The position numbers and the translations under genes are program-made. Below are positions 4,646 through 63,975 of a DNA stretch of 64,000 bases, piece by piece. Numbering within the stretch: position 1 is the stretch's first letter; each line of letters starts with the position of its first letter. The DNA comes from Candidatus Saccharimonadota bacterium (GTDB taxonomy: Bacteria; Patescibacteriota; Saccharimonadia; Saccharimonadales; AQU-01). The DNA lies in contig JBAXJI010000003.1 in assembly GCA_037137935.1 (NCBI GenBank), positions 3,383 through 67,382 on the forward strand, in the 5' to 3' direction. The notes beneath the pieces are model-generated. The model did not search any database. It was not told the DNA's origin and worked only from the letters and a program-made list of their open reading frames with translations.

Positions 4646-6829
4646 ATGCTTAATTCACTTACTGAAGGTCTAAACCCTGAACAACAAAGAGCCGTGCTAA
4701 CGACAGAAGGTCCGTTACTTATTCAGGCCGGAGCTGGGTCTGGCAAGACCAAGACTTTGACTCATCGTATCGCTCACATTATTGCTAGTAATAAGGCGAC
4801 TCCGTATAACATTCTGTCGGTTACTTTTACTAATAAGGCTGCCAAAGAAATGCGCGAAAGAATTTACGGACTAATGCAGGGGCTGGAGCATAAAAGAACT
4901 TACGAACAGGTTGATGAAGTTCAGGTTCCGCGTAATTTCATGCCATATATGGGAACATTCCACAGTATTTGTGTAAAAATATTGCGCCAAGACGGCGAAC
5001 ATATAGGTATTCCGCGCACCTTTGTTATTTTTGACGAATCTGATCGCCAGACTGCTGTTAAACAAGCTAGTCGACGGTTAATGTTAGATGAAAAAACCTT
5101 TCCGGCTAGGCTATTGTCTGGTTTAATTAGTGGCGCCAAAAATGAACTTATTCCACCAGAAAGATATTCTGGTAATAGTCCGGCAGAGACCTCGGCGGCC
5201 CAAGTTTATCCAATATACGAAAAGATTTTGCGAGATGCTGGTGCATTAGACTTTGACGACCTAATCGGTAAGACTGTTAAATTATTGCAAGACAAAGAAG
5301 AGATAAGACAAAAGTGGCGAAACCAATTTAGCTACGTAATGATAGACGAGTATCAGGACACTAATACTGCTCAATATAAATTAGTAAAATTACTTGTTAG
5401 TGACAAGCACAATATTGCTGTAGTGGGTGACGACTGGCAGAGTATTTATAGTTGGCGAGGTGCTGATTTTCGAAATATTTTAAATTTTGAGAAAGACTAC
5501 CCTGGCACTGCGATTATTAAATTAGAGCAAAATTATCGTAGCACCAAGAATATTCTTGATGCTGCTCACTCGGTAATAACCAAAAACCATCAGCGCTCTG
5601 ACAAAAAGCTTTGGACATCTGAAGAGGCGGGCTTGCCTATACAAATAGTTCCGGTTAGTAGCGAGAGGGCCGAGGGCGAAGCTATTATTCGACGGATACG
5701 AAACGGAGTAGATTCTGGGCAAAGACGCTATAACCATTATGCAGTTTTGTATCGAACAAATGCTCAAAGTCGTTCTATAGAAGAGGCCTTTATTCATTAC
5801 GGTATTCCATATCGAATTGTTGGTGGCGTGAGATTCTATGATCGTAAAGAAATTAAAGATCTAATGGCTTATTTGCGTTTAATATTCCAGCCTGAAGATC
5901 GCATAAGTTTTGAGCGAATAGTAAATATTCCTACCCGTGGTATTGGCGGTAAGTCTGTCCAAAACTTTTTATCTTGGCAGCTGTCACAGGGGCTAACATT
6001 GCTGAGCGCACTTGGCAGCGTTAGTGACTGTGAAACTCTTACGCCAAGGGCCAAAAAAGCATTATTCGAACTAGGTGAAATGATTGAAAGTTTGAGAGAA
6101 GTTATGGTTGACGCTAGTGTTACCGGACTTATCGATACTTTAATCAGGAGAATAGATTATTTTCGCTTTCTGGACGATGGTAGTTTGCAGGGTGAATCTA
6201 GACAAGAAAACGTGCGGGAATTAGTTAGTGTTGCTAAGGAATATCAGGATCTCGGATTGGACGGATTTTTGGAGGAAGTTGCGCTAGTTAGCGACCTTGA
6301 TAATGTGCAATTTGGCAATAATGTCGTAACGCTGATGACGCTACACGCTGCGAAAGGTTTGGAGTTTCCTGTTGTGTTTATGGCGGGAATGGAAGAGACG
6401 ATATTCCCACATTCTAGAGCGCTTTATGACCAGTCAGAAATGGAAGAGGAGAGACGGCTTTGTTATGTTGGTATGACCAGAGCTATGACAGAGCTCTATA
6501 TGCTACACGCTAGTAGTCGTATGCTTTATGGTGGCGTTCAACACAACCCGCCATCAAGGTTCCTGAGTGAAGTAGATGGTGATGTTCAAACCGGAAGTTC
6601 ACTAGAGCTTGGCTTATCTGGTGGAGCTCTAGGCTCTCAATTCTCGGCCTCTAGCGCGCCTGCAGAGCCACGATATGTTCCTGATTTGAATGAAGGTGAT
6701 AGTGTAAAACATCAGCTATTTGGAGTTGGTACTATAATGGAATTGAATGGCGAAGAAGCGGTTATATACTTCAAGGGTAAGGGGACGAAAAAGCTAAATA
6801 TTGGCTTTGCTCCTCTAGAGAAACTTTAG
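4646..6829 (+). CDS. pcrA: ATP-dependent DNA helicase PcrA/UvrD family
   Basis: SF1 helicase motifs: AGAGSGKT (Walker A), MIDEYQDTN, LEQNYRS, TLHAAKGLEF, VGMTRA. The track ORF begins at GTG 4619. The conserved start MLNSLTEGLNPEQQ is at ATG 4646. Confidence 0.9.
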   Translation: MLNSLTEGLNPEQQRAVLTTEGPLLIQAGAGSGKTKTLTHRIAHIIASNKATPYNILSVTFTNKAAKEMRERIYGLMQGLEHKRTYEQVDEVQVPRNFMPYMGTFHSICVKILRQDGEHIGIPRTFVIFDESDRQTAVKQASRRLMLDEKTFPARLLSGLISGAKNELIPPERYSGNSPAETSAAQVYPIYEKILRDAGALDFDDLIGKTVKLLQDKEEIRQKWRNQFSYVMIDEYQDTNTAQYKLVKLLVSDKHNIAVVGDDWQSIYSWRGADFRNILNFEKDYPGTAIIKLEQNYRSTKNILDAAHSVITKNHQRSDKKLWTSEEAGLPIQIVPVSSERAEGEAIIRRIRNGVDSGQRRYNHYAVLYRTNAQSRSIEEAFIHYGIPYRIVGGVRFYDRKEIKDLMAYLRLIFQPEDRISFERIVNIPTRGIGGKSVQNFLSWQLSQGLTLLSALGSVSDCETLTPRAKKALFELGEMIESLREVMVDASVTGLIDTLIRRIDYFRFLDDGSLQGESRQENVRELVSVAKEYQDLGLDGFLEEVALVSDLDNVQFGNNVVTLMTLHAAKGLEFPVVFMAGMEETIFPHSRALYDQSEMEEERRLCYVGMTRAMTELYMLHASSRMLYGGVQHNPPSRFLSEVDGDVQTGSSLELGLSGGALGSQFSASSAPAEPRYVPDLNEGDSVKHQLFGVGTIMELNGEEAVIYFKGKGTKKLNIGFAPLEKL

Positions 6830-6947: not shown

Positions 6948-8222
6948 ATGAAGATATTCAAGAAAAAATACATCAAAGGCAATAAAAAAGGATTTATTTT
7001 GTTGCGTCATCATCCTTTTATAGTTCCTGTGCTAACTTTCTTGGTTTTGTTTGGTCTTACTGCAGCAGTATTCGTGCTGACTGGTGGTGAATCTCTTAAG
7101 CTTGCTAACTCACACTCAGTAATAGTCACGCATGATAGGGTTAAGCAAACAGTGCCGACTCAAGCAAATAATGTTGGGGAGCTCCTAAAGAAGCTGAATA
7201 TAGTACTGAACGAAGGTGATATCGTCGAGCCAGCCGTTGATTTTCCTATCCTAGAAGACAATTTTAGGATAAATGTTTACCGGGCTCATCCAGTTACTAT
7301 CGTAGATGGAGACCATAAAGTGCTGGCTTTTAATGCTGCTGCTACACCAAGATCTATCGCAGCTAAAGCCGGTATTACAGTTTATGCAGAAGACGGTATT
7401 ACTTCACAACCGTCTGACGATATTATTAACGAAGCAATTATCGAGAAAATAGTAATAGACAGGGCAGTGGCAGTTAATTTGAACCTTTATGGTACGCCTG
7501 TAACTATCAGGAGTCACGCTAATACGGTTGGTGACATTTTGACGGAAAAGAATGTAAAGCTCGCTAAAGATGATGTTGTGTCTCCTGATGTCACGACGCC
7601 TATTACTTCAGACATACAAGTTTTTGTAACTAGAAACGGTACACAAATATCTACTATTGAAGAAATTGTCGGTTTCGAGACTCAAACTGTGGATGACTCA
7701 AGTCTCTCATTCGGAACTACTGCTGTGCGTCAAAATGGTGTTGAAGGCAAGAAGCTAGTAACTTATCAAATAAATCTAGTAAATGGAGTTGAGGCGTCAC
7801 GAGTAAAAATACAGGAAGTTACAGCGCTTACTCCAATAAACAGAATTATTGCTAGAGGCCGGGCTATCTCTATACCTGCCGACAAGACCGAGATAATGGC
7901 TGCGGCTGGGATAGCCCCGTCCGACTATCCATATGTCTATTATATTATTAATCACGAAAACGCATTATGGTGTCCTACAAGGTGGCAGGGTCAGTTTACT
8001 TGCCCGTCATACTATGCAGAAAAGTACCCAGGCGCAGAAACAGTCACGACTTTAGGTTATGGACTGTGTCAGTCTACGCCAGCGATTAAAATGTCTTCGG
8101 CAGGAGCTGACTGGCGCACAAATGTGGTTACTCAAATGAAGTGGTGCACAGATTATGCAATGCGTCGCTACGGTACTTGGGAGGCAGCCTATAACTACTG
8201 GGTTGCACATCGAAATTGGTAA
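6948..8222 (+). CDS. membrane-anchored DUF348/G5-domain cell-wall protein with lysozyme-like C-terminus (RpfB/YabE-like architecture)
   Basis: N-terminal TM helix, then repeated about 50-aa units of DUF348 type. A G5-like block (VRQNGVEGKKLVTYQINLVNGVEASRVKIQEVTALTPINRIIARG) follows. The C-terminus IINHENALW...GYGLCQSTP resembles transglycosylase-like domains. Confidence 0.65.
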   Translation: MKIFKKKYIKGNKKGFILLRHHPFIVPVLTFLVLFGLTAAVFVLTGGESLKLANSHSVIVTHDRVKQTVPTQANNVGELLKKLNIVLNEGDIVEPAVDFPILEDNFRINVYRAHPVTIVDGDHKVLAFNAAATPRSIAAKAGITVYAEDGITSQPSDDIINEAIIEKIVIDRAVAVNLNLYGTPVTIRSHANTVGDILTEKNVKLAKDDVVSPDVTTPITSDIQVFVTRNGTQISTIEEIVGFETQTVDDSSLSFGTTAVRQNGVEGKKLVTYQINLVNGVEASRVKIQEVTALTPINRIIARGRAISIPADKTEIMAAAGIAPSDYPYVYYIINHENALWCPTRWQGQFTCPSYYAEKYPGAETVTTLGYGLCQSTPAIKMSSAGADWRTNVVTQMKWCTDYAMRRYGTWEAAYNYWVAHRNW

Positions 8223-10958: not shown

Positions 10959-11349
10959 GGGGCTGAATTTAAGCTCGACGTCGGTCCTTCTCGGTTAGAT
11001 CAGCAGGTCGCTTGCTTAGCGTTATAGGGCAAAATTGTAATTGCAAACGCTTTTACTCGCGTACGAGATTTTGTAGCTAGTGCTTTTGCACCAAGCGCAA
11101 TGTTCGCCGGCGCAACAGCTTAAGTTACGACTTAATGCCGTGCCACGCAAGACGCCAAATATTGTAATGGTACGCCAAATCATTTGGCCGCTCATTATCG
11201 ATAATCCGTAGATAGTGCTAAGACTTTCGGATTAAACGCTCTGACTTTTTGATTGTTTCTATGTCAGACGTATTCAAACAATCTACACCTGTAGGATAGA
11301 CTAACTGTTAGGCTAACGGACGCGGGGGCGGTACCCGCCAGCTCCTCCA
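10959..11349 (+). ncRNA. ssrA: tmRNA (SsrA), one-piece
   Basis: 5' GGGGCTGAATTTAAGCTCGACG resembles the E. coli 5' end. The 5' GGGGCTG pairs with 3' CAGCTCC, giving the G3:U70 alanine identity pair, followed by T-CCA. A T-arm is present (gcggg/cccgc). The internal tag frame opens with GCAAAC as in E. coli and runs 11043-11120 to TAA at 11121-11123. Confidence 0.85.
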
Positions 11350-11358
11350 TAGTAAGTG

Positions 11359-11382
11359 CCCGACTGCAAAGTCGGGTATTTT
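11359..11382 (+). terminator. rho-independent terminator after ssrA
   Basis: Stem cccgact / agtcggg with loop gcaa, then tattttc. Confidence 0.6.
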
Positions 11383-11420: not shown

Positions 11421-11448
11421 TTGACATAATAAATAATTGTAGTATAAT
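11421..11448 (+). promoter_or_regulatory. near-consensus sigma70-type promoter
   Basis: TTGACA at 11421-11426, a 16-nt spacer, TATAAT at 11443-11448. It sits 3-9 nt before the ATG codons at 11451 and 11457. Confidence 0.45.
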
Positions 11449-11450
11449 AT

Positions 11451-11702
11451 ATGATTATGAGCAATCACCCTAATGGATCTTTTGAGTTCTTTGGAGAAGT
11501 CATAAACCCCGAGTTATATCGTGAGAAAGTCAAAGCACGTGAAGCTGGGATTGCTGAAGATGATGCTAGAGTATTTTCTGGAGACCTAGAGCCTATCGCA
11601 GATATGGATATACTTCATGGAATGATTGATATTGCGCGCTGGTGGTTGGCCAACACGGACTTTGACTCCTTAGAAGAAGTTGAAGAAGACGAAGAAGACT
11701 AA
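11451..11702 (+). CDS. hypothetical small acidic protein
   Basis: 83-aa ORF ending in SLEEVEEDEED. It is the only ORF between the two copies of the ssrA 3' end. I recognise no family. Confidence 0.5.
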   Translation: MIMSNHPNGSFEFFGEVINPELYREKVKAREAGIAEDDARVFSGDLEPIADMDILHGMIDIARWWLANTDFDSLEEVEEDEED

Positions 11703-11745: not shown

Positions 11746-11770
11746 GTACCCGCCAGCTCCTCCATAGTAA
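11746..11770 (+). repeat. exact 25-nt direct repeat of the ssrA 3' end (att-like)
   Basis: gtacccgccagctcctccatagtaa at 11746-11770 is identical to 11331-11355 (T-loop 3' half, acceptor 3' strand, CCA, plus 6 nt). Confidence 0.8.
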
Positions 11771-11799: not shown

Positions 11800-11989
11800 G
11801 CTTTTTATGAGTAGATAAAATCACTACATTTTGATTGATTATGACAGGCGCTGGGGGTGTATTATTTATGAAGTGCTATTGCTATAAAACTAAAACCAAT
11901 TTGCAGGAGGATTTACGAGTAATTTTAATTCTGAAAACCAAATAGGTAATGAAAGAGACGATTCAGTAATAAGTCATAAAGCGGGTTTA

Positions 11990-12295
11990 TTGCGGGATCA
12001 ACTAGAGTCTGAATTAACCAGAGAATATATCGAAATAGATCACGATGGGCGAGCGCGACATTTTGCTCATACCGTGCTGTCAGAACAAATCAACCGCGGC
12101 AAGACTCCAGAAGCAGAAATTAGTAGTATAAAAAGCCTAGCAGGACTAGCGATTGGGCAGGTGGCAGAACATTATAAGCAGCAAGGTTTTATGGTTGGTA
12201 TCCACGCTCGGGAAATGCTTGACTATAGCGATCCTAGCGCAACAAGACGCCCAACAACTGCCGAATATATCCTACGAATTGACCGTTACTTTTAA
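11990..12295 (+). CDS. hypothetical protein
   Basis: 101-aa ORF with a TTG start. The in-frame upstream sequence is open back to 11894 but has no canonical start. I recognise no family. Confidence 0.45.
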   Translation: MRDQLESELTREYIEIDHDGRARHFAHTVLSEQINRGKTPEAEISSIKSLAGLAIGQVAEHYKQQGFMVGIHAREMLDYSDPSATRRPTTAEYILRIDRYF

Positions 12296-12390
12296 ATCCA
12301 AAGACCGACAACTAATTGCAAGAAATAGGCCGTTATAATATGTATAGAGTCTTATGATAAACCTTAAGGTATAATTTATTCATAAAACTT

Positions 12391-14067
12391 ATGACTGCAG
12401 ACAATAACGATCAAGCGCCAAAAAAACCACAGACTTACAAAGAGGTATTAGAATTACAGCCCGACATTCACCCGGATTTAAAAGTACATTTAGATAGACA
12501 AATAAGGAAAGAAACAGCATCACAGGCTGGACAATTAGCGCTAGCTGTTACCAATGGTGTCGTTATAGACAATAACCCTTCGATTGAACCGAAAGGACTA
12601 AGTCATAACACTAGACTAAGAACAATCCTATCTACAGCCTTGACCGTAGACACAATAGATACATATGCCGAAACAGCAATTAGTGATTTAATTAATCTAA
12701 CAGGCAATGTAGTTAATGAATTTGCGGACACATTAAGCCCAGAAGCCGTGTATTCTGACAATAAAAAATTAGAAGACGCAGCCTTTAGCTATTTTGACTT
12801 ACCTAGTATTACAGGAAATCTAGATAATATAGCTAAAATAGATCAAGACATAAAGAACATAGATAGAGTTATAGAAAAAGCAAGCATCAAAGACCAGGTT
12901 ATAGTCCCGCCCGACGCCCCCGTAAGACCTATTGTTCCAGGAAACGGAGAAGGCCTATTAGAAAATAAGCTACGCCCTCGACTAAAAACATTGCTGTTTA
13001 TTCTTGAAAAAGATAATAACATTGATTTAGACGATCTAAAAATAGCTGAAGGTATTACGACTAATGAAATGATGAGAAAAGAGCCGTACTACTCGGTAGA
13101 AGTTCCTAGTCTTAACAGGACAGTACTGGTATGCAACGAAGAAGGTAATGCCACTTTTGTTATAGATACCAAGAAACTAGAAGAGCTAAAAATATCTACA
13201 GAGCAACTATTAGATATGACCAAGGATAAGTTAAATGCATTAATGGCAGAACACGCTGGCTTTGGAAGAAGAATAATACAATCAGATAGCTGGGTAGACA
13301 ATATCGCAGTCAATCTAAACGAAATACAGTTGAGTGCTAATGAACAAGCAAATACTCAGGAAACACCAAGAAGTTACCTTAACGGAACAGAGCGTGACCG
13401 TCAAGGAAATGCCCTGCTGTATTCCGCAGGCGATCTTGGTAATAAAAGCGGCAAAAAAGGAATGTTTGATGTATCCGGTCCGACAATCCAAAAAGCAGCC
13501 AAAGACTTACGAATTGAAGGTCAAGAAGCTAAGTTTGGTACTAGTAAAGGCATTGGCTATGACCCATGGCAGGTGAACGATATTAGAGATGAGCTCTATA
13601 GACAAAATCTTATCGAGAGAAGTCCACCAGACAGGATTTATTCCGCAGGCGATCTTAGTAGTGATAAGGGCAAAAAAGGAATGTTTGATGTAAGCCAAAG
13701 TACAATCCGAAGAATAGTTAAAGACTTAGTAATTGAAGGTCAAGAAGCTTCTTTTGGTAGTAATAAAGGCATTGGCTATGACCCATGGCAGGTGAACGAT
13801 ATTAGAGATGAGCTCTATAGACAAAATCTTATCGAGAGAAGTCCACCAGACAGGATTTATTCCGCAGGCGATCTTAGTAGTGATAACGGCAAAAAAGGAA
13901 TGTTTGATATATCGTATTATACAATCCGAGATATAGCCAAAGACTTAGGAATTGAAGGTCAAGAAGCTATTTTTGGTAGAATAAAAGGCACTGGTTATAA
14001 CCGCGAACAGGTGGACAAGATAAAAGCCGAAGCAATAAGGCGAGGTTTTATTAAAGCAAATGAATAG
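12391..14067 (+). CDS. hypothetical protein with three C-terminal 73-aa HTH-like repeats
   Basis: 558 aa. The N-terminal about 340 aa are unrecognised. The C-terminus holds 3 tandem units: YSAGDL..GKKGMFDVS..TI...KDL.IEGQEA.FG..KGIGYDPWQVNDIRDELYRQNLIERSPPDRI. Confidence 0.7.
   Translation: MTADNNDQAPKKPQTYKEVLELQPDIHPDLKVHLDRQIRKETASQAGQLALAVTNGVVIDNNPSIEPKGLSHNTRLRTILSTALTVDTIDTYAETAISDLINLTGNVVNEFADTLSPEAVYSDNKKLEDAAFSYFDLPSITGNLDNIAKIDQDIKNIDRVIEKASIKDQVIVPPDAPVRPIVPGNGEGLLENKLRPRLKTLLFILEKDNNIDLDDLKIAEGITTNEMMRKEPYYSVEVPSLNRTVLVCNEEGNATFVIDTKKLEELKISTEQLLDMTKDKLNALMAEHAGFGRRIIQSDSWVDNIAVNLNEIQLSANEQANTQETPRSYLNGTERDRQGNALLYSAGDLGNKSGKKGMFDVSGPTIQKAAKDLRIEGQEAKFGTSKGIGYDPWQVNDIRDELYRQNLIERSPPDRIYSAGDLSSDKGKKGMFDVSQSTIRRIVKDLVIEGQEASFGSNKGIGYDPWQVNDIRDELYRQNLIERSPPDRIYSAGDLSSDNGKKGMFDISYYTIRDIAKDLGIEGQEAIFGRIKGTGYNREQVDKIKAEAIRRGFIKANE
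13420..14064 (+). repeat. 219-bp tandem repeat x3 (intragenic)
   Basis: Units start at 13420, 13639 and 13858. About 125 nt are perfectly identical between units 1/2 and 2/3 (13547-13675 vs 13766-13894). Unit 3 diverges at its 3' end. Confidence 0.9.
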
Positions 14068-14237
14068 CTATTAATTCACTGCTTTTTTTACTACTACTTA
14101 TAATAAGTTTATCTCCTCGCTCTTTAATCCTAAAAACTAAATAAGTAGTGCAAGCGATGACGCCATAATAAAACAAAAAGCAGGATTATTGCAGGATCAA
14201 CCCGAATTTAAGTTAAATTATCATATAATTTGATAAG

Positions 14238-54527: not shown

Positions 54528-54614
54528 GCGCGAGTGGCGGAATTGGTAGACGCGCTAGCTTCAGGAGTTAGTGGGGGTAACCCCGTGGAGGTTCAAGTCC
54601 TCTCCCGCGCACCA
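54528..54614 (+). tRNA. tRNA-Leu (anticodon CAG), class II with long variable arm, CCA encoded
   Basis: GCGCGAG-TG-GCGG-AATTGGTAGA-CGCG-CTAGC-TTCAGGA-GTTAG-variable arm-GGAGG-TTCAAGT-CCTCT-CCCGCGC-A-CCA. Nearly colinear with E. coli tRNA-Leu(CAG). One A:C mismatch in the acceptor stem. Confidence 0.9.
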
Positions 54615-54649
54615 ATATTAGGACCGGTCGCAAGGCCGGTTTTAATATT
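54615..54649 (+). terminator. hairpin after tRNA-Leu(CAG)
   Basis: The outer stem aatatta / taatatt encloses the inner stem accgg / ccggt, followed by a short T-run. Confidence 0.45.
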
Positions 54650-54656
54650 GGTAAAT

Positions 54657-54716
54657 GTGCAGACTTGAACTTCCAGAATTAAGTCAGCCTGCTGATGTGG
54701 AGGTTAGCCCGCGCCC
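54657..54716. repeat. scraps of the tRNA-Leu T-arm/acceptor: one inverted, one direct
   Basis: The reverse complement of 54657-54676 (ctggaagttcaagtctgcac) matches tRNA positions tggaggttcaagtcc at 13 of 15. 54697-54716 (gtggaggtt-ag-cccgcgcc) repeats the T-stem 5' strand and the acceptor 3' strand in direct orientation. Confidence 0.6.
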
Positions 54717-54733
54717 AAACCGAACTTGCTTTG

Positions 54734-55930
54734 CTATGCTAATTTTTCTTGCTCTGCACGTTCAGCTGCTTCACGTTCAGCTGCTTCAAGTTTAGCTGCT
54801 TCAAGTTCAGCTTTAGCCTTATCCTTAAACTTTGCATCAAGATATGGAATTGCTCTGCCTGTTTCTGCAGCCGCTCCCCTCAGTAGGGCATTGTAAATTA
54901 CTTCGGCTTGATGTTCGCGCATCGTGACGTTATCACCAATCACACCGTCGAAATCAACCATTACATGGGCGCCGTCAAAAATAGTTCCAAACCTATCTTC
55001 ATCAAGTAATTCATCAAATGTTTCGATTGAATTAAAATCCTTCTTTTTTTTCTTTAGTTCTTCAACTGCATCTTCGGCTTCTTCACTGCCGTCTTCCACC
55101 AATTTATCGACTTTTTTCTGGGCTTCTCTGCCTTCTCGACTTCCCGTGAACCAGATCGTCTCTATAACGACTTTACCGGCCGCAATTTTTTCTTTTAATA
55201 GCTTGTCTACTTTTTCAAAATTACCAGACGAATCTTCAATTATAACAAGTTTTAATGGCGGTTCAGTTTCGTCGTCGTTTTCATGGGCCTCTACAATCGC
55301 AGCAAGTTTTAATGGCGGTTCAGTTTCGTCGTCGTTTTCATGGGCCTCTACAAACGCAGCAAGTTTTTCGAACTTATCACCGGCTACGATGTAGTTAGTT
55401 TTGTCTCTAATAAAATCATGTCGTTCGACTCTGTTGGGAACAGCCTCTTGCAAATTAGAAATTAATTTTCTGACTATTCCTGACTTAGAAATTTTAGCAT
55501 CTTGGTAGCCTGTGGCTGCAACATCACCGGTAGACCAAATGTTTAGCGATTTTATCCTTCCCTGGTATTTTGCAACTAATTCTGGCATCGTATCAGATAT
55601 GTCTGGAGCTAACATTTTACTCATGTCTATGCCATGAAGACCAGTTATTATTTGGCCTCTAAAATTATCAAAACCTACAGAATCAGTTTGTTCATTTTCC
55701 ATAAATTTTTCCCATAATCTAGTGGCGTATTTGTTATAGTCCATATCGCCTTCTTCCTCGACTTTTGATTGAAGTTCAAAAAAGTACTTACTTAAATCAG
55801 GTGATGGCTCGACAGGTTCTATTGATGGATCGTATTCGGTCAAACCTTTTCTATTTCTAGCAGCATCAGCTGCAGCACTTATGAAGTCTCTTGTTATGAA
55901 GTCTCTTGGTTGTGGCGGTTGTTGTTCCAT
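54734..55930 (-). CDS. hypothetical protein with internal 19-aa duplication and Ala/Glu-rich C-terminal tail
   Basis: 398 aa. Contains HAD-like fragments (MVDFDGVIGDN, IWSTGD, VIIEDS) in a non-canonical order. Tail reads AELEAAKLEAAEREAAERAEQEKLA. Confidence 0.6.
   Translation of the reverse strand: MEQQPPQPRDFITRDFISAAADAARNRKGLTEYDPSIEPVEPSPDLSKYFFELQSKVEEEGDMDYNKYATRLWEKFMENEQTDSVGFDNFRGQIITGLHGIDMSKMLAPDISDTMPELVAKYQGRIKSLNIWSTGDVAATGYQDAKISKSGIVRKLISNLQEAVPNRVERHDFIRDKTNYIVAGDKFEKLAAFVEAHENDDETEPPLKLAAIVEAHENDDETEPPLKLVIIEDSSGNFEKVDKLLKEKIAAGKVVIETIWFTGSREGREAQKKVDKLVEDGSEEAEDAVEELKKKKKDFNSIETFDELLDEDRFGTIFDGAHVMVDFDGVIGDNVTMREHQAEVIYNALLRGAAAETGRAIPYLDAKFKDKAKAELEAAKLEAAEREAAERAEQEKLA
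55247..55360 (-). repeat. 57-bp tandem duplication (2 copies) inside the CDS
   Basis: 55247-55303 and 55304-55360 are near-identical (aagttttaatggcggttcagtttcgtcgtcgttttcatgggcctctacaa...). This gives AAFVEAHENDDETEPPLKL / AAIVEAHENDDETEPPLKL. Confidence 0.9.
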
Positions 55931-55944
55931 GACACAATAATATC

Positions 55945-56442
55945 ATGATTTATTGGTTTATTGGCTACCCTGGCGTAGGCAAAGATTATTGTGCAAAAAA
56001 GTTGAGCCAATTATTGGTTTGTCCGCATATTGATGCTGATGATTTCCTTACTAATGAGAATAAACAGAGCTTGATAGCCGGCAAGTTTGGTAGTCACGAC
56101 AGACTACAAAAGCTAAATAGAATATGCAAGAAAGTTAAAATCCTGCTAGAAACTAATGACTGTATTACTGTAGCTGATTCGTTGCCCGACCAAGCTTCTA
56201 GAAATTTTGTAGTCAATTATTTTGGTAAAAATGTCAGGTTCATACTAGTTAAGTCGTCTGATTCTATACACCATGGTCGGCTTACGGCTAGGTCAGACCA
56301 TTTTTTTACCCATGAATTAATAGAAGATTATATCAAGAATAATTGGCAGGAAATTGATGAAGACAACATGCCATGTACAATTCTTATAAATGAGCATAAA
56401 AGTGAGGCAGAGTTAATTAAGGCTTTACAAGAACTTATATAA
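55945..56442 (+). CDS. P-loop kinase, gluconokinase-like
   Basis: Walker A GYPGVGKD. HIDADDFLTNENKQSLIAGKFGSHDRLQKL resembles the GntK pattern (DgDd.Hp..N..KM..G.pL.D.DR..WL). gnd lies two genes downstream. Confidence 0.5.
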   Translation: MIYWFIGYPGVGKDYCAKKLSQLLVCPHIDADDFLTNENKQSLIAGKFGSHDRLQKLNRICKKVKILLETNDCITVADSLPDQASRNFVVNYFGKNVRFILVKSSDSIHHGRLTARSDHFFTHELIEDYIKNNWQEIDEDNMPCTILINEHKSEAELIKALQELI

Positions 56443-56464
56443 TTTTTAATAAATAGGGGACACA

Positions 56465-57232
56465 TTGGATTTTAAAAAAGAACTAGAATTTGCCAAAACA
56501 ATCGCAATAAAGGCAGGCGACATAATGTTGCAATATTTTGATGGGGATCAAAACACGGAGATTAAAACTGACGGTACACCAGTGACAATTGCCGATAAAA
56601 CAATTAACCGTATGGTAATTGATGAATTACGACAAGACTTTACTGGTGATGGTGTGGTTGGCGAGGAAGAGAGCAGTGCTGAATATGGCATGGGTCGGCG
56701 CTGGATATGTGATCCAATTGACGGCACCATGGCCTACACGTACGGCTTACCTATCTCTATGTTTTCTTTAGCACTAGTTATAGATGGCCTACCGACACTT
56801 GGAGTCGCCTATAATCCTTTCATGAAGCAGATGTTTTGGGGGATCAAAGGCCGTGGAAGTTTTTGCAACGGAAAGGCTCTAAGCGTTTCTAGCCTAGATA
56901 TTAATTCTGGGATAGTCGCGATTCCTCCTAATATGACGAGAGTTTATGGCCAGGCTCCAGATATAACCAAATTACTGGCATATAAGCCTCAGTTAGCAGT
57001 ATTTGATGGAGCGGTTCATAGGAGTTGTTTGGTAGCTAGTGGACGATTAATCGGCTTTCCTCATCCAGAAGTTAAGCCTCACGATGTTGCCGCTGTCCAT
57101 GTGATTATTGAAGAAGCTGGCGGTAAGGTTACAGATGTACACGGCGGTAAGCTAGATTATAGTAAGCCTTTCGTCGGAGCAATATTGTCAAATGGTGTGG
57201 CCCACGAGCAATTACTGTCACTTTTTGTGTAG
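56465..57232 (+). CDS. inositol monophosphatase family protein
   Basis: TTG start preceded by AGGGGA. Motifs VVGEEES and WICDPIDGT, plus the C-terminal EEAGG region. Confidence 0.85.
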   Translation: MDFKKELEFAKTIAIKAGDIMLQYFDGDQNTEIKTDGTPVTIADKTINRMVIDELRQDFTGDGVVGEEESSAEYGMGRRWICDPIDGTMAYTYGLPISMFSLALVIDGLPTLGVAYNPFMKQMFWGIKGRGSFCNGKALSVSSLDINSGIVAIPPNMTRVYGQAPDITKLLAYKPQLAVFDGAVHRSCLVASGRLIGFPHPEVKPHDVAAVHVIIEEAGGKVTDVHGGKLDYSKPFVGAILSNGVAHEQLLSLFV

Positions 57233-57285
57233 ATCTTCAGTCTTATCAATAGTAAATATAGATTGTTTCGTACTATAATATTGAT

Positions 57286-60809: not shown

Positions 60810-60893
60810 GCGCGAGTGGTGGAATGGTAGACACGCTTGTCTGAGGGGCAAGTGCCGCAAGGTGTGGAGGTTCAAGTCCTCTCTCGCGCACCA
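60810..60893 (+). tRNA. tRNA-Leu (anticodon GAG), class II, CCA encoded
   Basis: GCGCGAG-TG-GTGG-AATGGTAGA-CACG-CTTGT-CTGAGGG-GCAAG-variable arm-GGAGG-TTCAAGT-CCTCT-CTCGCGC-A-CCA. The acceptor stem is perfect. Confidence 0.9.
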
Positions 60894-60906: not shown

Positions 60907-60983
60907 GGGCGCTTAGCTCAGTTGGCTAGAGCATCTCGTTTACACCGAGAGGGTCGGGGGTTCGAGTCCCTCAGCGCCCACCA
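60907..60983 (+). tRNA. tRNA-Val (anticodon TAC), CCA encoded
   Basis: GGGCGCT-TA-GCTC-AGTTGGCTA-GAGC-A-TCTCG-TTTACAC-CGAGA-GGGTC-GGGGG-TTCGAGT-CCCTC-AGCGCCC-A-CCA. Confidence 0.92.
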
Positions 60984-60988
60984 AGAAT

Positions 60989-61015
60989 AAAACCGACCCT
61001 AAAGGTCGGTTTTTT
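60989..61015 (+). terminator. rho-independent terminator after tRNA-Val
   Basis: Stem aaaaccgacc / ggtcggtttt, loop ctaaa, with a T-run. Confidence 0.6.
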
Positions 61016-61154
61016 CATGGCTTGGCGATGAAGCAAATGAACTGCTTCATTTGCGTGGGGCGAAGAACAGTCGGAGCCTTGTGCGCCGGTACTCGGCGCA
61101 CGGCGAGACGGGGTCGACCGCAAAATGCAAGGCATTTTGATGGGTGACTCGAAT

Positions 61155-61173
61155 GTCCCTCAGCGCCCACCAA
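61155..61173 (+). repeat. exact 19-nt copy of the tRNA-Val 3' end (copy 2)
   Basis: gtccctcagcgcccaccaa is identical to 60966-60984. Weaker similarity extends about 12 nt upstream (ctcgaat vs ttcga). Confidence 0.85.
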
Positions 61174-61214
61174 AGAAAAATGCCAGGCTTTATGTCTGGC
61201 ATTTTTCTTTGGTG
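61168..61214. other. perfect 19-bp-stem hairpin
   Basis: caccaaagaaaaatgccag (61168-61186) and ctggcatttttctttggtg (61196-61214) are exact reverse complements, with a 9-nt loop. The left arm starts inside tRNA-Val 3'-end copy 2. Confidence 0.85.
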
Positions 61215-61357
61215 ATTCTGTAGGGTTACGGTCCACCGAATTGACGGCCTTGGCCGGCAATAGTCGGGAGTTCGTGTAGCGAGGCGCAAAAGAAGAAAGC
61301 GGGCCGAAGGCACATATTCTTCTCGGCCGAGCGGATGTAGGGAGCAAAGCGACTGAT

Positions 61358-61376
61358 GTCCCACAGCGCAACCAAA
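61358..61376 (+). repeat. degenerate copy of the tRNA-Val 3' end (copy 3)
   Basis: gtcccacagcgcaaccaaa vs gtccctcagcgcccaccaa, about 16 of 19 with one indel. Followed by the hairpin aaataccagac / gtcaggtattt (61380-61406), which overlaps the stop codon of the minus-strand gene. Confidence 0.6.
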
Positions 61377-61396
61377 TAAAAATACCAGACAATTTG

Positions 61397-63121
61397 TCAG
61401 GTATTTAACTTTTTATACAATACTAGACTGACGGAAGTATTGACTTTAAATTTCTGAATTTCTTGAAGATGGTAGTCTGATGCAGCGGTTTCTCTCATTC
61501 TGAAAAAGGACAGTATATAGTTTATTTTTTCAGGTTCTAACGATAATACACATTTAGTATTATGCAGACCGGCGTTATGCAGCTCTGTGTTGACTACATC
61601 AATAACATAATCATTTATTACAGTATTATTAGTAATCACGCAAAAGATATCTTTATTCTCGTAAGTACTTTGGTTATTTTTGAAGAATTTCACTAAATCA
61701 GGAATAAATTCGAAAGTTATAAATCCTGGCTTGTTCGATCCGACATACTTAGGCCCAAATTGAGCTCCGTCTGTCTCCCCGTAAGGAAAAATTTTAATAT
61801 ATCTATATTGTTCGAATATTGGAATGAATATCAGAGCGGCTATTAGCAAGTTGCTTGAAAATCTTTTAGATAAAATCTTTTTCTCTGGCCATATATATGC
61901 AAAAGGAATGTATAGAAATGGGAAGATCATCAAGGCATACCAAGTCAATAACCACTCAGAAAATGTAAAAATAATTAACTGAATAATCGCAACTATAATT
62001 AGGAGCAAGTAGTCATTAATTAGGGCTTTTAACCTACCAGTCTTGTAAAGTTTTAGGAGTGCAATAGCAAGCAGTGCTCCTGCAAATAAGCCAAATTTTA
62101 CTGCAATTATTATGTATATATCCTTATATGAGTGTATTAAGCCTGTAGATTGGCTGCTCCAAGATTGTAGCCAGTCCCGTATTTCGAATATGTTATTAAT
62201 ATTGAAATATATTGGCGAGAATATGATTGTAGTCACAAGAGCGGTTGTAGTTAATAGAATCCATTTTTCTATAAAATTCTTAGCAGTTTCTTTGCTGTTT
62301 TCATGCAAGTACATATATATACCGGCAATCAAGTATAGAATAGACGCTCCTACCATAAGATAAAATTTAAGCACTGATGGCAGAGGAGCTATGTTAACTT
62401 CTATCCATATTAATAAGAACGAAAAGTTTAGAGTACCTAGCTTTAGACTGCTTCTACTTGAGGATAGCTTCGTGTTGATTATTTCTGCGCGAGTAGCTTT
62501 ATTTTTGTAGTGCATCCAGAGGTCATATATAAATACAGAAACAAGAATTGTGAGTCCAAATAGCTTGGCAGCTATTGAAAGCCCTATAACTATTCCTAAG
62601 ACTGCAGTATTTTTTATACTTAATTTATTGGATATTTTTGCATGGTTTTTGAGGTATAGATATAAAGCTAATGTAGAAAAGAGGATGTACGTATTGTCTG
62701 AACTAGACATATTGAGAATGGAGAAGCTAAAAAGATAGCAGCTAAGACTGGCTAACACCGTGCCATACATTGAACGACTAAATGATAACTTTAATCTTAA
62801 AAGCCTGAAGAATACAAATAAATATATCGAGTTTATTACAATAGACAGTATTCTTGTTGCGAATAGAGCGTTCGTTTTAAAAAGTAAAATAATTGGAATA
62901 CAAATAAGTTGTGAAAAGTGTGATTGGGCAGGACTGTCTGCATGGCTGAAGAAATTCCTGTAGCTAGAAAGATCTAGTTTAATTGTATTGATATCACCTA
63001 GCTCATCTCCTAAATAAGGCAGTTTGTGGGCTGCGTAAATCTTCAGTATTAGAATGTAGGCAGATAGTAGGAGTATTCCATATTTTGCCAGTTTATGTTT
63101 GTTTTGTTTTAGGAAGTGCAT
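61397..63121 (-). CDS. polytopic membrane protein, GT-C glycosyltransferase-like (family 39 / ArnT-PMT type)
   Basis: More than 10 hydrophobic helices. An acidic first-loop motif (AAHKLPYLGDELGD) is typical of ArnT/PMT-type enzymes. Markedly AT-rich codon usage. The track ORF extends to 63229, but ATG 63121 (MHFLKQNKHK) avoids overlap with the divergent gene. Confidence 0.55.
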   Translation of the reverse strand: MHFLKQNKHKLAKYGILLLSAYILILKIYAAHKLPYLGDELGDINTIKLDLSSYRNFFSHADSPAQSHFSQLICIPIILLFKTNALFATRILSIVINSIYLFVFFRLLRLKLSFSRSMYGTVLASLSCYLFSFSILNMSSSDNTYILFSTLALYLYLKNHAKISNKLSIKNTAVLGIVIGLSIAAKLFGLTILVSVFIYDLWMHYKNKATRAEIINTKLSSSRSSLKLGTLNFSFLLIWIEVNIAPLPSVLKFYLMVGASILYLIAGIYMYLHENSKETAKNFIEKWILLTTTALVTTIIFSPIYFNINNIFEIRDWLQSWSSQSTGLIHSYKDIYIIIAVKFGLFAGALLAIALLKLYKTGRLKALINDYLLLIIVAIIQLIIFTFSEWLLTWYALMIFPFLYIPFAYIWPEKKILSKRFSSNLLIAALIFIPIFEQYRYIKIFPYGETDGAQFGPKYVGSNKPGFITFEFIPDLVKFFKNNQSTYENKDIFCVITNNTVINDYVIDVVNTELHNAGLHNTKCVLSLEPEKINYILSFFRMRETAASDYHLQEIQKFKVNTSVSLVLYKKLNT

Positions 63122-63210
63122 AATATGAATATAACATAAGTAGCGAATCATTATTCTGCATATACTTAATTGTTGTAACGAGTATAATGAGCTTATAAAT
63201 AAGGAGCAAT

Positions 63211-63975
63211 ATGGGTACATTAATAACAATTTTGGTGGTTGGATTATTTATTATTCTAGTAAATGGTGTGAGGATTATTAACCAATACGAGCGTGGTGTT
63301 GTTTTTCGCCTTGGTAAGGTACTTCCTAATATCAAACAGCCCGGCCTAAGATTAATTATTCCTATTATCGACCAGATGCGTAAAGTTCCGCTACGTACAA
63401 TTACGCTACCTATCGAGACACAAAAAATTATCACCAAAGACAATGTTTCGATAGATGTTTCGGCTGTTGCTTACTATCAAGTGGCAGATCCTATTAAATC
63501 AATTGTTGAGATCGAGAATGTTGTTTCGGCGACTTATCAGATTGCCCAGACTACCGTGCGTAATGTTGTTGGCCAGTCAACTATGGACAATGTATTGAGC
63601 GAAACTACAGAATTGAACGAAAAAGTTAAGTCTATTTTGGATATAGCTACCGAAAAATGGGGTATATATGTCAGTAATGTTGAGCTAAAGGACATTCAGT
63701 TGCCTGAAAGCATGCAACGAGCTATGGCCAAACAAGCTGAAGCCGAGCGCGAAAAGCGTGCCAAAATTATTGCTGCTGAAGGTGAAGCTCTTAGTGCCGC
63801 TAAGTTAGGTGAAGCCGCCGACATCATTAACGCTCATCCGATTGCGCTACAGCTACGAAACTTACAGGTGTTAAGCGAAATAGCAGTCGAAAAGAACTCG
63901 ACCATCATTTTCCCAAGTCAATTCATGGACACAGTCTCAAGCGTCAAAGACTTCATGGCCAAAGAGACTAAGTAA
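63211..63975 (+). CDS. SPFH/Band 7 (stomatin-like) protein
   Basis: N-terminal TM helix. Motifs [32 protein letters not shown], and the coiled-coil [23 protein letters not shown]. Confidence 0.9.

Follow-up and report, generated by a model that had tools for sequence, protein, structure and literature searches.

The repeated 3' end of tRNA-Val in a Candidatus Saccharimonadota genome: candidate miniature cassettes at tRNA and tmRNA genes

The tRNA-Val array and its variation between strains

Behind the tRNA-Leu(gag)/tRNA-Val(tac) gene pair of a Candidatus Saccharimonadota bacterium (assembly GCA_037137935.1, contig JBAXJI010000003.1; the analysed stretch of 64,000 nucleotides is referred to as the window, and coordinates given without a locus number are window positions) lies an array of three copies of the 3' end of tRNA-Val, separated by two short, GC-rich units that are designated A and B. 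The repeat, GTCCCTCAGCGCCCACCAA, is 19 nt long, of which 18 are the 3'-terminal nucleotides of tRNA-Val and one is a flanking base: Its first copy comprises the last two T-loop bases, the 3' strand of the T-stem, the 3' strand of the acceptor stem, ACCA and one extra base. Two exact occurrences were present in the window where none is expected (100 window shuffles), whereas the third copy, GTCCCACAGCGCAACCAAA, deviates by two substitutions and a one-base deletion and was, in consequence, missed by an ungapped search allowing three mismatches. The copies are spaced by 189 bp and then by 203 bp. The features of the locus are the following:

60810-60893, plus strand: tRNA-Leu(gag), first gene of the tRNA pair (ARAGORN; Rfam tRNA, 53 bits)
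60907-60983, plus strand: tRNA-Val(tac), intact gene and putative target, attL side (ARAGORN; Rfam tRNA, 69 bits)
60966-60984, plus strand: direct-repeat copy 1, exact
60985-61173, plus strand: unit A, 189 bp, composed of terminator T1, filler and repeat copy 2 (strain comparison)
60989-61015, plus strand: terminator T1, 10-bp stem followed by a T-run, part of unit A (hairpin search)
61058-61149, plus strand: predicted alpha module in unit A (covariance-model match, 62.9 bits, E 1e-11)
61155-61173, plus strand: direct-repeat copy 2, exact
61168-61214, plus strand: terminator T2, 19-bp hairpin, 100% complementary (arms 61168-61186 and 61196-61214)
61174-61376, plus strand: unit B, 203 bp, composed of terminator T2, beta filler and repeat copy 3 (strain comparison)
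61218-61239, plus strand: weak antisense likeness to the T-arm of tRNA-Val (18/23, not significant here)
61263-61277, plus strand: sense copy of the 5' strand of the tRNA-Val T-stem and the start of the T-loop, GTCGGGAGTTCGTGT, in unit B
61272-61344, plus strand: beta motifs TCGTG(T/A)AGCGA and GAGCGGATGTAGGGAG around a variable hairpin
61358-61376, plus strand: direct-repeat copy 3, decayed (repeat search)
61380-61406, strand unassigned: terminator hairpin T3 (arms 61380-61392 and 61394-61406)

The sequence of T1 is unrelated to those of T2 and T3 and arrives together with unit A. The stem of T2 takes in the CACCA of repeat copy 2, and in strains without unit A this terminator stands directly 3' of tRNA-Val; T3 is homologous to T2 (76%, with compensatory changes in the stem) and also terminates a convergent open reading frame (ORF) for a membrane protein of 610 amino acids (aa) that adjoins the array (61397-63229, minus strand). 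The initial annotation, which was made from the letters of the window, had described two exact copies and a degenerate third in units of 189 and 203 bp, and these coordinates and spacings were borne out. The hairpin that it had placed behind each copy (60989-61015, 61168-61214 and 61380-61406) was found in every case, its G+C counts (42/60 for 61061-61120 and 34/60 for 61241-61300) are exact, and the stems that it had listed (gtgcgccg/cggcgcac, caaaatgc/gcattttg, two palindromes in unit B and ggggcg at 61057) are all present.

The fillers of units A and B contain 79/139 (57%) and 80/143 (56%) G+C, respectively, compared to 40.9% in the window, where no 140-nt stretch across the 64 kb exceeds 57.9%. 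Unit A folds clearly better than shuffled sequences (z -4.1 on the plus strand and z -5.5 on the minus strand), whereas the folding of unit B is no better than that of shuffles (z +0.3 and z -1.2, respectively). The palindromes of unit B are ctcggccgag at 61322 and cggccttggccg at 61245; in unit A, a 5' GGGGCG at 61057 is able to pair with the 3' CGCCC. In units A and B, no sigma-70-like promoter was detected on the plus or the minus strand, and a strong terminator precedes each unit. The strain comparison revealed no conserved ORF in the units, in agreement with the earlier statement that no integrase gene lies between the copies; that only minus-strand ORFs occur in this region has to be corrected, as a plus-strand ORF of 41 aa is also present.

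The tRNA-Val sequence was 100% identical in all relatives compared (related and metagenomic loci are given by L numbers), and these relatives differ in the units that follow it. The window, L004/L048 and L007 carry both units behind tRNA-Val, whereas in L001, L003, L005, L008 and L012 tRNA-Val is followed by T2 and unit B, with unit A missing to the base. In L002, unit A is present, unit B and the gene of the 610-aa membrane protein are absent, and a Band_7 gene directly follows the tRNA-Val array; this is the only absence of unit B among the relatives that are readable at the array (L006 has a scaffold gap at this site). Because the unit-less forms originate from independent samples and assemblers, a collapse of the repeats is unlikely to be their cause. 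Repeat copy 3 is perfect in the relatives carrying unit B (L001, L003, L004, L005, L007 and L008) and decayed only in the window. Units A and B thus behave as discrete insertions flanked by direct repeats.

Between distant strains, both units are approximately five times less diverged than the flanking genes: L001 and L004 differ by 5.3% in the flanking genes (approximately 14% at third codon positions, measured on the equally distant pair of window and L001) versus 1.0% in unit B, and the window differs from L002 by 5.6% in the genes versus 1.2% in unit A. The window's own unit B together with repeat copy 3 has changed at about the neutral rate (3.9% versus 3.1% at third codon positions, relative to L004), which is consistent with its decayed outer repeat. 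As unit A is common to distant strains and missing from the close L005, it has either moved recently between strains or been lost repeatedly. The adjoining membrane-protein gene is hypervariable and a mosaic with 1.7% to 23% divergence, its 3' 600 nt being 23% different where other genes differ by 1-5%. Upstream of the tRNA pair, an 87-aa protein is encoded identically on many freshwater metagenome contigs.

Conserved modules and further units at tRNA and tmRNA genes

Comparative analysis shows that the filler of unit A belongs to a conserved structured module, termed alpha, that recurs across species and tRNA types. Alpha measures approximately 105 nt, comprises three hairpins and a conserved closing stem (GAGGCGGGGTCG...CGTGAC), and has GTGAC as its last bases, immediately ahead of what is left of the T-loop. 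It was found in tRNA-Val units (the window and, truncated, L100), in tRNA-Gly units (L068, L077, L092 and L100) and in the tRNA-Leu(gag) unit of L019, and furthermore inside a displaced 5' half of tRNA-Phe in L068 and L075, the same half being uninterrupted in L019. A covariance model detected alpha only beside tRNA fragments in the 297 kb searched, and once in the window. In the RNAalifold consensus of nine sequences, 95% of the cells were paired and 10 pairs were changed on both sides, values that were reached by 0 of 500 shuffles and were far lower in slid controls; the sample is small, and any two hairpins that are mutually aligned show such "compensation". The approximately 18 G.U cells compared to one C.A cell favor the tRNA strand as the one on which alpha is paired, most of these G.U cells stemming from two invariant columns. 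An interpretation of alpha as a hammerhead or other small ribozyme was rejected, the core motifs not being conserved.

Unit B shares two motifs, TCGTGAAGCGA and GAGCGGAT(G/A)TAGGGAG, with tRNA-Phe units of other species; this second module is termed beta, and the tRNA-matching parts of the beta units differ according to the tRNA. The automatic cross-species alignment was of insufficient quality for counting covariation, and the claim for beta is therefore limited to the shared motifs. Both modules may act as recombination arms, as folded single-strand sites or as RNA cargo.

The initial annotation concerned this locus alone; the same design was encountered at other tRNA genes and at the gene of the transfer-messenger RNA (tmRNA), and genome-wide in the lineage. 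In the loci that were collected through homologues of the neighboring Band_7 protein, a copy of the gene's own 3' end is located downstream of tRNA-Val, tRNA-Phe, tRNA-Gly, tRNA-Leu(cag), tRNA-Leu(gag) and tRNA-Leu(taa), mostly at a distance of 100-300 nt (up to 374 nt where two units stand in tandem) and in 22 of 50 distinct tRNA contexts. The trait depends on lineage: L088, L096 and L102 have no such copy, whereas L098, L100 and L092 each contain several. In seven RNA genes (those of tRNA-Val, tRNA-Phe, tRNA-Gly, three tRNA-Leu and tmRNA), the repeat starts inside the T-loop at positions 56-60; independent units are of similarly small size (113-255 bp), and several pseudo-ends at other loci lack the CCA. 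The terminator stems always take in the ACCA of the tRNA. In 9-10 of 13 units, the T-arm recurs in antisense directly behind the terminator (+42 to +68; shuffle fraction at most 0.01) and forms a long imperfect palindrome with the 3' half of the tRNA, a feature that is not significant for units A and B of the window. Further inward, the 5' strand of the T-stem often follows in sense orientation, then a module in the place of the T-loop, and finally the 3' end. Within the single genome of L019, terminators behind different tRNAs are near-copies of each other (5917-5960, 7640-7719 and 7490-7541; ATTTCAnAGCCCACCCTTGnGGTGGGTTTTGAAATTGG), and T2 and T3 of the window are related in the same manner, with compensatory changes in their stems. 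The corresponding features of the window and the displaced tRNA-Phe copies are listed below:

54528-54614, plus strand: tRNA-Leu(cag)
54615-54725, plus strand: left part of the unit behind tRNA-Leu(cag), with terminator, antisense T-arm copy (54662-54675) and sense T-stem copy
10959-11349, plus strand: tmRNA gene (Rfam)
11331-11355 and 11746-11770, plus strand: 3'-end repeat of tmRNA, 25 nt, two copies
11356-11378, plus strand: terminator of the tmRNA cassette
11421-11448, plus strand: sigma-70-like promoter of the tmRNA cassette (TTGACA-16-TATAAT, 12/12)
11451-11702, plus strand: ORF of the tmRNA cassette, 83 aa, acidic, no family match
L068 3474-3661, L075 3464-3658 and L019 12843-13010: displaced 5' copies of tRNA-Phe

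At tRNA-Leu(cag), the full unit of 113 nt is present in L002 and L005, which lack the approximately 2.5 kb with three genes that have replaced the right end of the unit in the window, where the right-hand repeat is lost. In this region (54615-57269), the three genes of the inserted DNA code for a 398-aa protein without family match (minus strand), a kinase-like protein (165 aa) and an inositol monophosphatase (255 aa). L001 has an empty tRNA-Gly unit of approximately 135 nt, while in L004 the same arms enclose a promoter and a gene for a 429-aa protein with a pilin-like N-terminus. Three tRNA-Phe genes are preceded at approximately 170-190 nt by a displaced copy of their own 5' end. At the two junctions that were read (L068 and L019), this copy stops within the anticodon loop, and the promoter of the working tRNA-Phe gene is situated between the displaced copy and the gene.

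At the tmRNA gene, a 415-bp cassette with terminator, promoter and 83-aa ORF lies between the two 3'-end repeats, which run 6 nt beyond the CCA. The cassette is exactly absent in L087, where tmRNA is directly followed by the second terminator. A further indel close by (11833-14228), likewise absent in L087, has no flanking tmRNA repeats; it contains an ORF of 101 aa and the gene of a 558-aa protein in which a stretch of approximately 70 aa is repeated three times in tandem.

Origin of the units

Considering these data, the array probably results from two successive site-specific integrations of miniature, recombinase-less cassettes into the T-loop of tRNA-Val, an explanation in which we place moderate confidence. 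Each cassette would bring a replacement for the last 19 nt of the tRNA, its own terminator and a GC-rich structured module, and the displaced older 3' end would be shifted outward by the new cassette. Unit B would have been inserted first and unit A later, between tRNA-Val and unit B; the outermost copy would be the oldest site and its decay would therefore be expected. The reaction would be catalyzed by a recombinase encoded elsewhere, either a tyrosine integrase or a large serine recombinase like that of a relative at tRNA-Leu(gag), with alpha and beta serving either as conserved arms for recombination, in which case they would amount to little more than an attP of lambda-like size, or as non-coding RNA cargo. 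The spread between strains probably also involved homologous recombination after DNA uptake. As such small double-stranded circles are poor substrates, the mini-units may move only with their neighbors, as single strands, or by homologous recombination after uptake.

The initial annotation had left serial integration or decay scars and a family of structured RNAs as alternatives. Serial integration is supported as the origin of the repeats by the precise presence or absence of the units, the boundary in the T-loop, the terminator supplied by the element and the strongest decay in the outermost copy; the structured RNA retains partial support for unit A only, whose filler belongs to a conserved module with compensatory changes, and not for unit B. 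Small size had been taken to speak against the units as elements, a view that is contradicted by their behavior as discrete insertions and by the equally small, empty or loaded versions at other tRNAs and at tmRNA. Of the features by which integrative elements are recognized, the units display the repeat of the 3' end starting in the T-loop, the exact empty and occupied sites and the restored target gene, whereas an integrase gene inside the element next to the attachment (att) site is lacking. Their size of 113-415 bp is unusual, as are the many tRNA genes that are hit in a genome of about 1 Mb, the conserved structured modules as sole content, and the occurrence of one and the same module with ends from different tRNAs. 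A bare attP of the lambda type is of about the same size. T-loop and anticodon-loop crossovers are reportedly, in work by Williams from 2002, the classical sublocations of integrases at tRNA genes. This classification is echoed in the work on the ssrA islands of Dehalococcoides (PMC3146451).

A number of observations weigh against integration by a recombinase. The window contains 50 ORFs of at least 150 aa; no recombinase domain was recognized in the approximately 47 that were scanned or annotated via the relatives' loci (four of these against PHROGs only, with three of the 50 unscanned), and neither the Pfam and PHROGs scans nor tblastn with the relative's serine recombinase revealed such an enzyme in the window. 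No full-length alpha or beta element was detected in viral contigs, phages, plasmids or related loci, the metagenome and genome scans being exact-pattern searches: BLAST of 60985-61410 gave no match in phage or plasmid collections, and in viral contigs the pseudo-end and two alpha motifs were not found, a beta motif had chance matches in coding DNA only, and the bare 18-nt tRNA end matched two prophage-type att sites of high G+C without any relation to the fillers. The relative's enzyme is a 525-aa serine recombinase (PF00239; L058 1094-2736, L096 7094-8736) that is encoded on the strand opposite to tRNA-Leu(gag), and its last codons overlap the 3' end of that tRNA gene; the element in L096 carries neither alpha nor a second tRNA-Leu(gag) repeat at its far end. 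Furthermore, double-stranded circles of 113-203 bp would be awkward intermediates, and the mini-units may not move alone; the compensatory hairpins and conserved G.U pairs are more in keeping with RNA or single-stranded DNA than with double-stranded arms bound by a protein. The low divergence of the units may reflect recent recombination tracts across the tRNAs instead of selection, as the neighboring membrane-protein gene is mosaic, and a deletion between 19-nt repeats would also yield a precise absence.

In the related species, the serine recombinase gene heads an insertion of approximately 6 kb between an FAD oxidase gene and the tRNAs. An identical 18-nt end of tRNA-Val also occurs in high-GC metagenome and viral contigs (L010, L011, L020, L025, L038, L043 and others), where it adjoins partial tRNA 3' halves resembling prophage att sites; the tRNA-Val att core is thus common to this Saccharibacterium and to high-GC bacteria. 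A high-GC (host actinobacterial) donor of the fillers was considered and rejected, the fillers being dissimilar to the high-GC loci that use the identical tRNA-Val end. Likewise, an origin by reverse transcription, with the 18-nt end representing a stop at a modified T-loop base, was rejected because the tmRNA repeat extends 6 nt past the CCA and the boundaries range from position 56 to position 60.

If the units were genes for tRNA-like structured RNAs, with an acceptor-like stem, a T-arm carrying a large insertion and an ACCA end, they would be transcribed by read-through or from an unrecognized promoter and matured by tRNA-like processing, and the repeats would reflect the RNA's need for a 3' end like that of tRNA-Val. 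This explanation, which we consider unlikely, would account for GC-rich fillers in a genome of 41% G+C, for the folding of unit A (z -4.1), for alpha pairs kept by compensatory changes with an excess of G.U over C.A cells on the tRNA strand, for units far less diverged than the flanking genes, and for the possible pairing of the 5' GGGGCG with the 3' CGCCC. It is opposed by the folding of unit B, by the origin of most G.U cells in two invariant columns, and by the strong terminator ahead of each unit and the lack of a sigma-70-like promoter in A and B, which also speak against the earlier assumption of co-transcription with the tRNA cluster. Moreover, the fillers remained below every Rfam gathering score: With Rfam 15 at gathering and permissive thresholds, no filler of the window or of four related loci was matched (best E at least 0.16), the thresholds were passed only by true tRNAs and tmRNA, and the known RNA family that had been considered possible was not encountered. 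The units are gained and lost between strains with identical neighboring proteins and are missing from whole lineages, copy 3 is decaying in the window, several pseudo-ends elsewhere lack the CCA, and the extension of the tmRNA repeat 6 nt past the CCA indicates identity at the DNA level. The existence of long minus-strand ORFs (125 aa, 61015-61392, or 105 aa, 61047-61364) could suggest a protein gene as the cause of the conservation, to which we give practically no credence: The ORFs overlap each other and are R/P/S-rich, and the 125-aa ORF is not a gene, because it spans both units and is broken in every strain with a single unit, as anticipated by their first description as noise.

That the units are inert remnants of large islands or prophages that integrated at tRNA-Val and lost almost their entire length by deletion, and that the fillers have no present role, would be in line with the commonplace occurrence of tRNA fragments left by integration (PMC9897764), with the deletion expected in streamlined saccharibacterial genomes and with the nearly neutral rate of unit B and copy 3 in the window. 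Such inert scars, which had been envisaged before, are distinctly unlikely in view of the independent units all falling within 113-255 bp, the filler families conserved across species and tRNA specificities, the approximately five times lower divergence of units A and B between distant strains, and the presence of unit A in distant strains and its absence from a close one. An origin without any site-specific recombinase would involve either template switching at terminator hairpins, giving rise to copies of the 3' half of the tRNA that are first inverted and then direct, or short-homology recombination of taken-up DNA at a conserved tRNA. Saccharibacteria are naturally competent. The antisense T-arm copy directly behind the terminator in 9-10 of 13 units and the inclusion of the tRNA's ACCA in all terminator stems are in favor of such a process; in unit A, by contrast, terminator and filler are unrelated and the antisense copy is not significant, some cassettes contain foreign genes with their own promoters, and the boundary of the repeat in the T-loop is fixed across seven RNA genes, for which reasons it appears very improbable.

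Alpha and beta could form the constant scaffold of self-addressed cassettes, in which a nucleic acid (RNA, or folded single-stranded DNA that the competent cells take up) specifies the target and a host enzyme performs the insertion; we regard this idea as highly speculative and expect it to be wrong. The cassettes would consist of the core together with sense and antisense segments that match the T-arm and the 3' end of the occupied tRNA gene, a logic comparable to integron attC sites, the hairpin sites of CTX phage and the bridge-RNA guides of IS110.

Saccharibacteria possess tiny, streamlined genomes with few known mobile elements. As this locus shows, a large share of the differences between their strains is located in very small cassettes at the T-loops of tRNA and tmRNA genes, some with accessory genes and others with nothing but a conserved structured module. 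If active, the mini-cassettes would rank among the smallest integrating units described and would offer engineers of these organisms docking sites that are already in place; should the modules be RNAs, they would constitute a new RNA family tied to tRNA genes; and if the cassettes are self-addressed, tRNA T-loops would represent a distributed, programmable capture system in ultra-small bacteria. In either case, genome annotation in this phylum should reckon with tRNA genes that are followed by fragments of tRNA 3' ends and by GC-rich islands.

Relation to known systems

An acceptor-like stem, an ACCA end and a large structured insertion are likewise found in tmRNA, YrlA and viral tRNA-like 3' ends; unlike these, the units match no Rfam family, have no promoter and are dispensable between strains. 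Rickettsia palindromic elements and other repeats resembling miniature inverted-repeat transposable elements are small palindromic insertion elements that land in RNA genes. Alpha is similar in its length of approximately 105 nt, its richness in hairpins, its multiple copies within one genome and its interruption of the tRNA-Phe 5' half (L068 and L075), but differs in lacking terminal inverted repeats and a clear target duplication and in occurring only inside tRNA-fragment copies. With integron cassettes, the units share the tandem arrangement, the very small size, the frequent lack of a promoter, the lack of an ORF in some cases and a recombinase encoded outside the cassette (in our proposal), and the imperfect palindromes of attC junctions have a counterpart in the tRNA 3' half, terminator and, in many units, antisense T-arm copy. 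In contrast to integrons, no IntI or attI was seen in the window, and the junction is a tRNA 3' end instead of an attC with R and L boxes; the T-loop sequence GTTCGAG of tRNA-Val does not fit the integron core GTTRRRY, and the palindrome is weak at the Val units of the window.

Cis-mobilizable elements (CIMEs) retain attL and attR but have lost the genes for integration and transfer, and tandem accretion, in which new elements integrate beside old ones, gives rise to repeated att sites (review PMC5704250). The units agree with this definition of CIMEs in that att sites are kept and recombination genes are lacking: The repeats flanking unit A are perfect, and those of unit B are perfect in the relatives, the outer one being decayed in the window. 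The array as a whole corresponds to tandem accretion of the kind seen in the Dehalococcoides ssrA islands. The described CIMEs derive from identifiable integrative and conjugative or integrative and mobilizable elements, whereas no parent element was found here in viral contigs, phages, plasmids or related loci; the size resembling a bare attP and the joining of one filler module to different tRNA ends are further differences. The ssrA islands of Dehalococcoides depend on the serine recombinase DsiB and use a T-loop site (PMC3146451). In contrast to the units, which measure 113-415 bp, are mostly gene-less, target many tRNA genes, contain conserved structured modules and have no recombinase in or near the array, these islands are kilobases long, carry genes and target ssrA only. 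Like the units, they are flanked by a direct repeat of approximately 20 bp of the tRNA-like gene's 3' end and are arranged in tandem, each ending in the repeat, with variation between strains and with some islands lacking integration genes; the overlap of dsiB with the tRNA-like 3' end is mirrored by the relative's 525-aa serine recombinase at tRNA-Leu(gag). According to our best reading, the units are closest to the CIMEs and to these ssrA islands.

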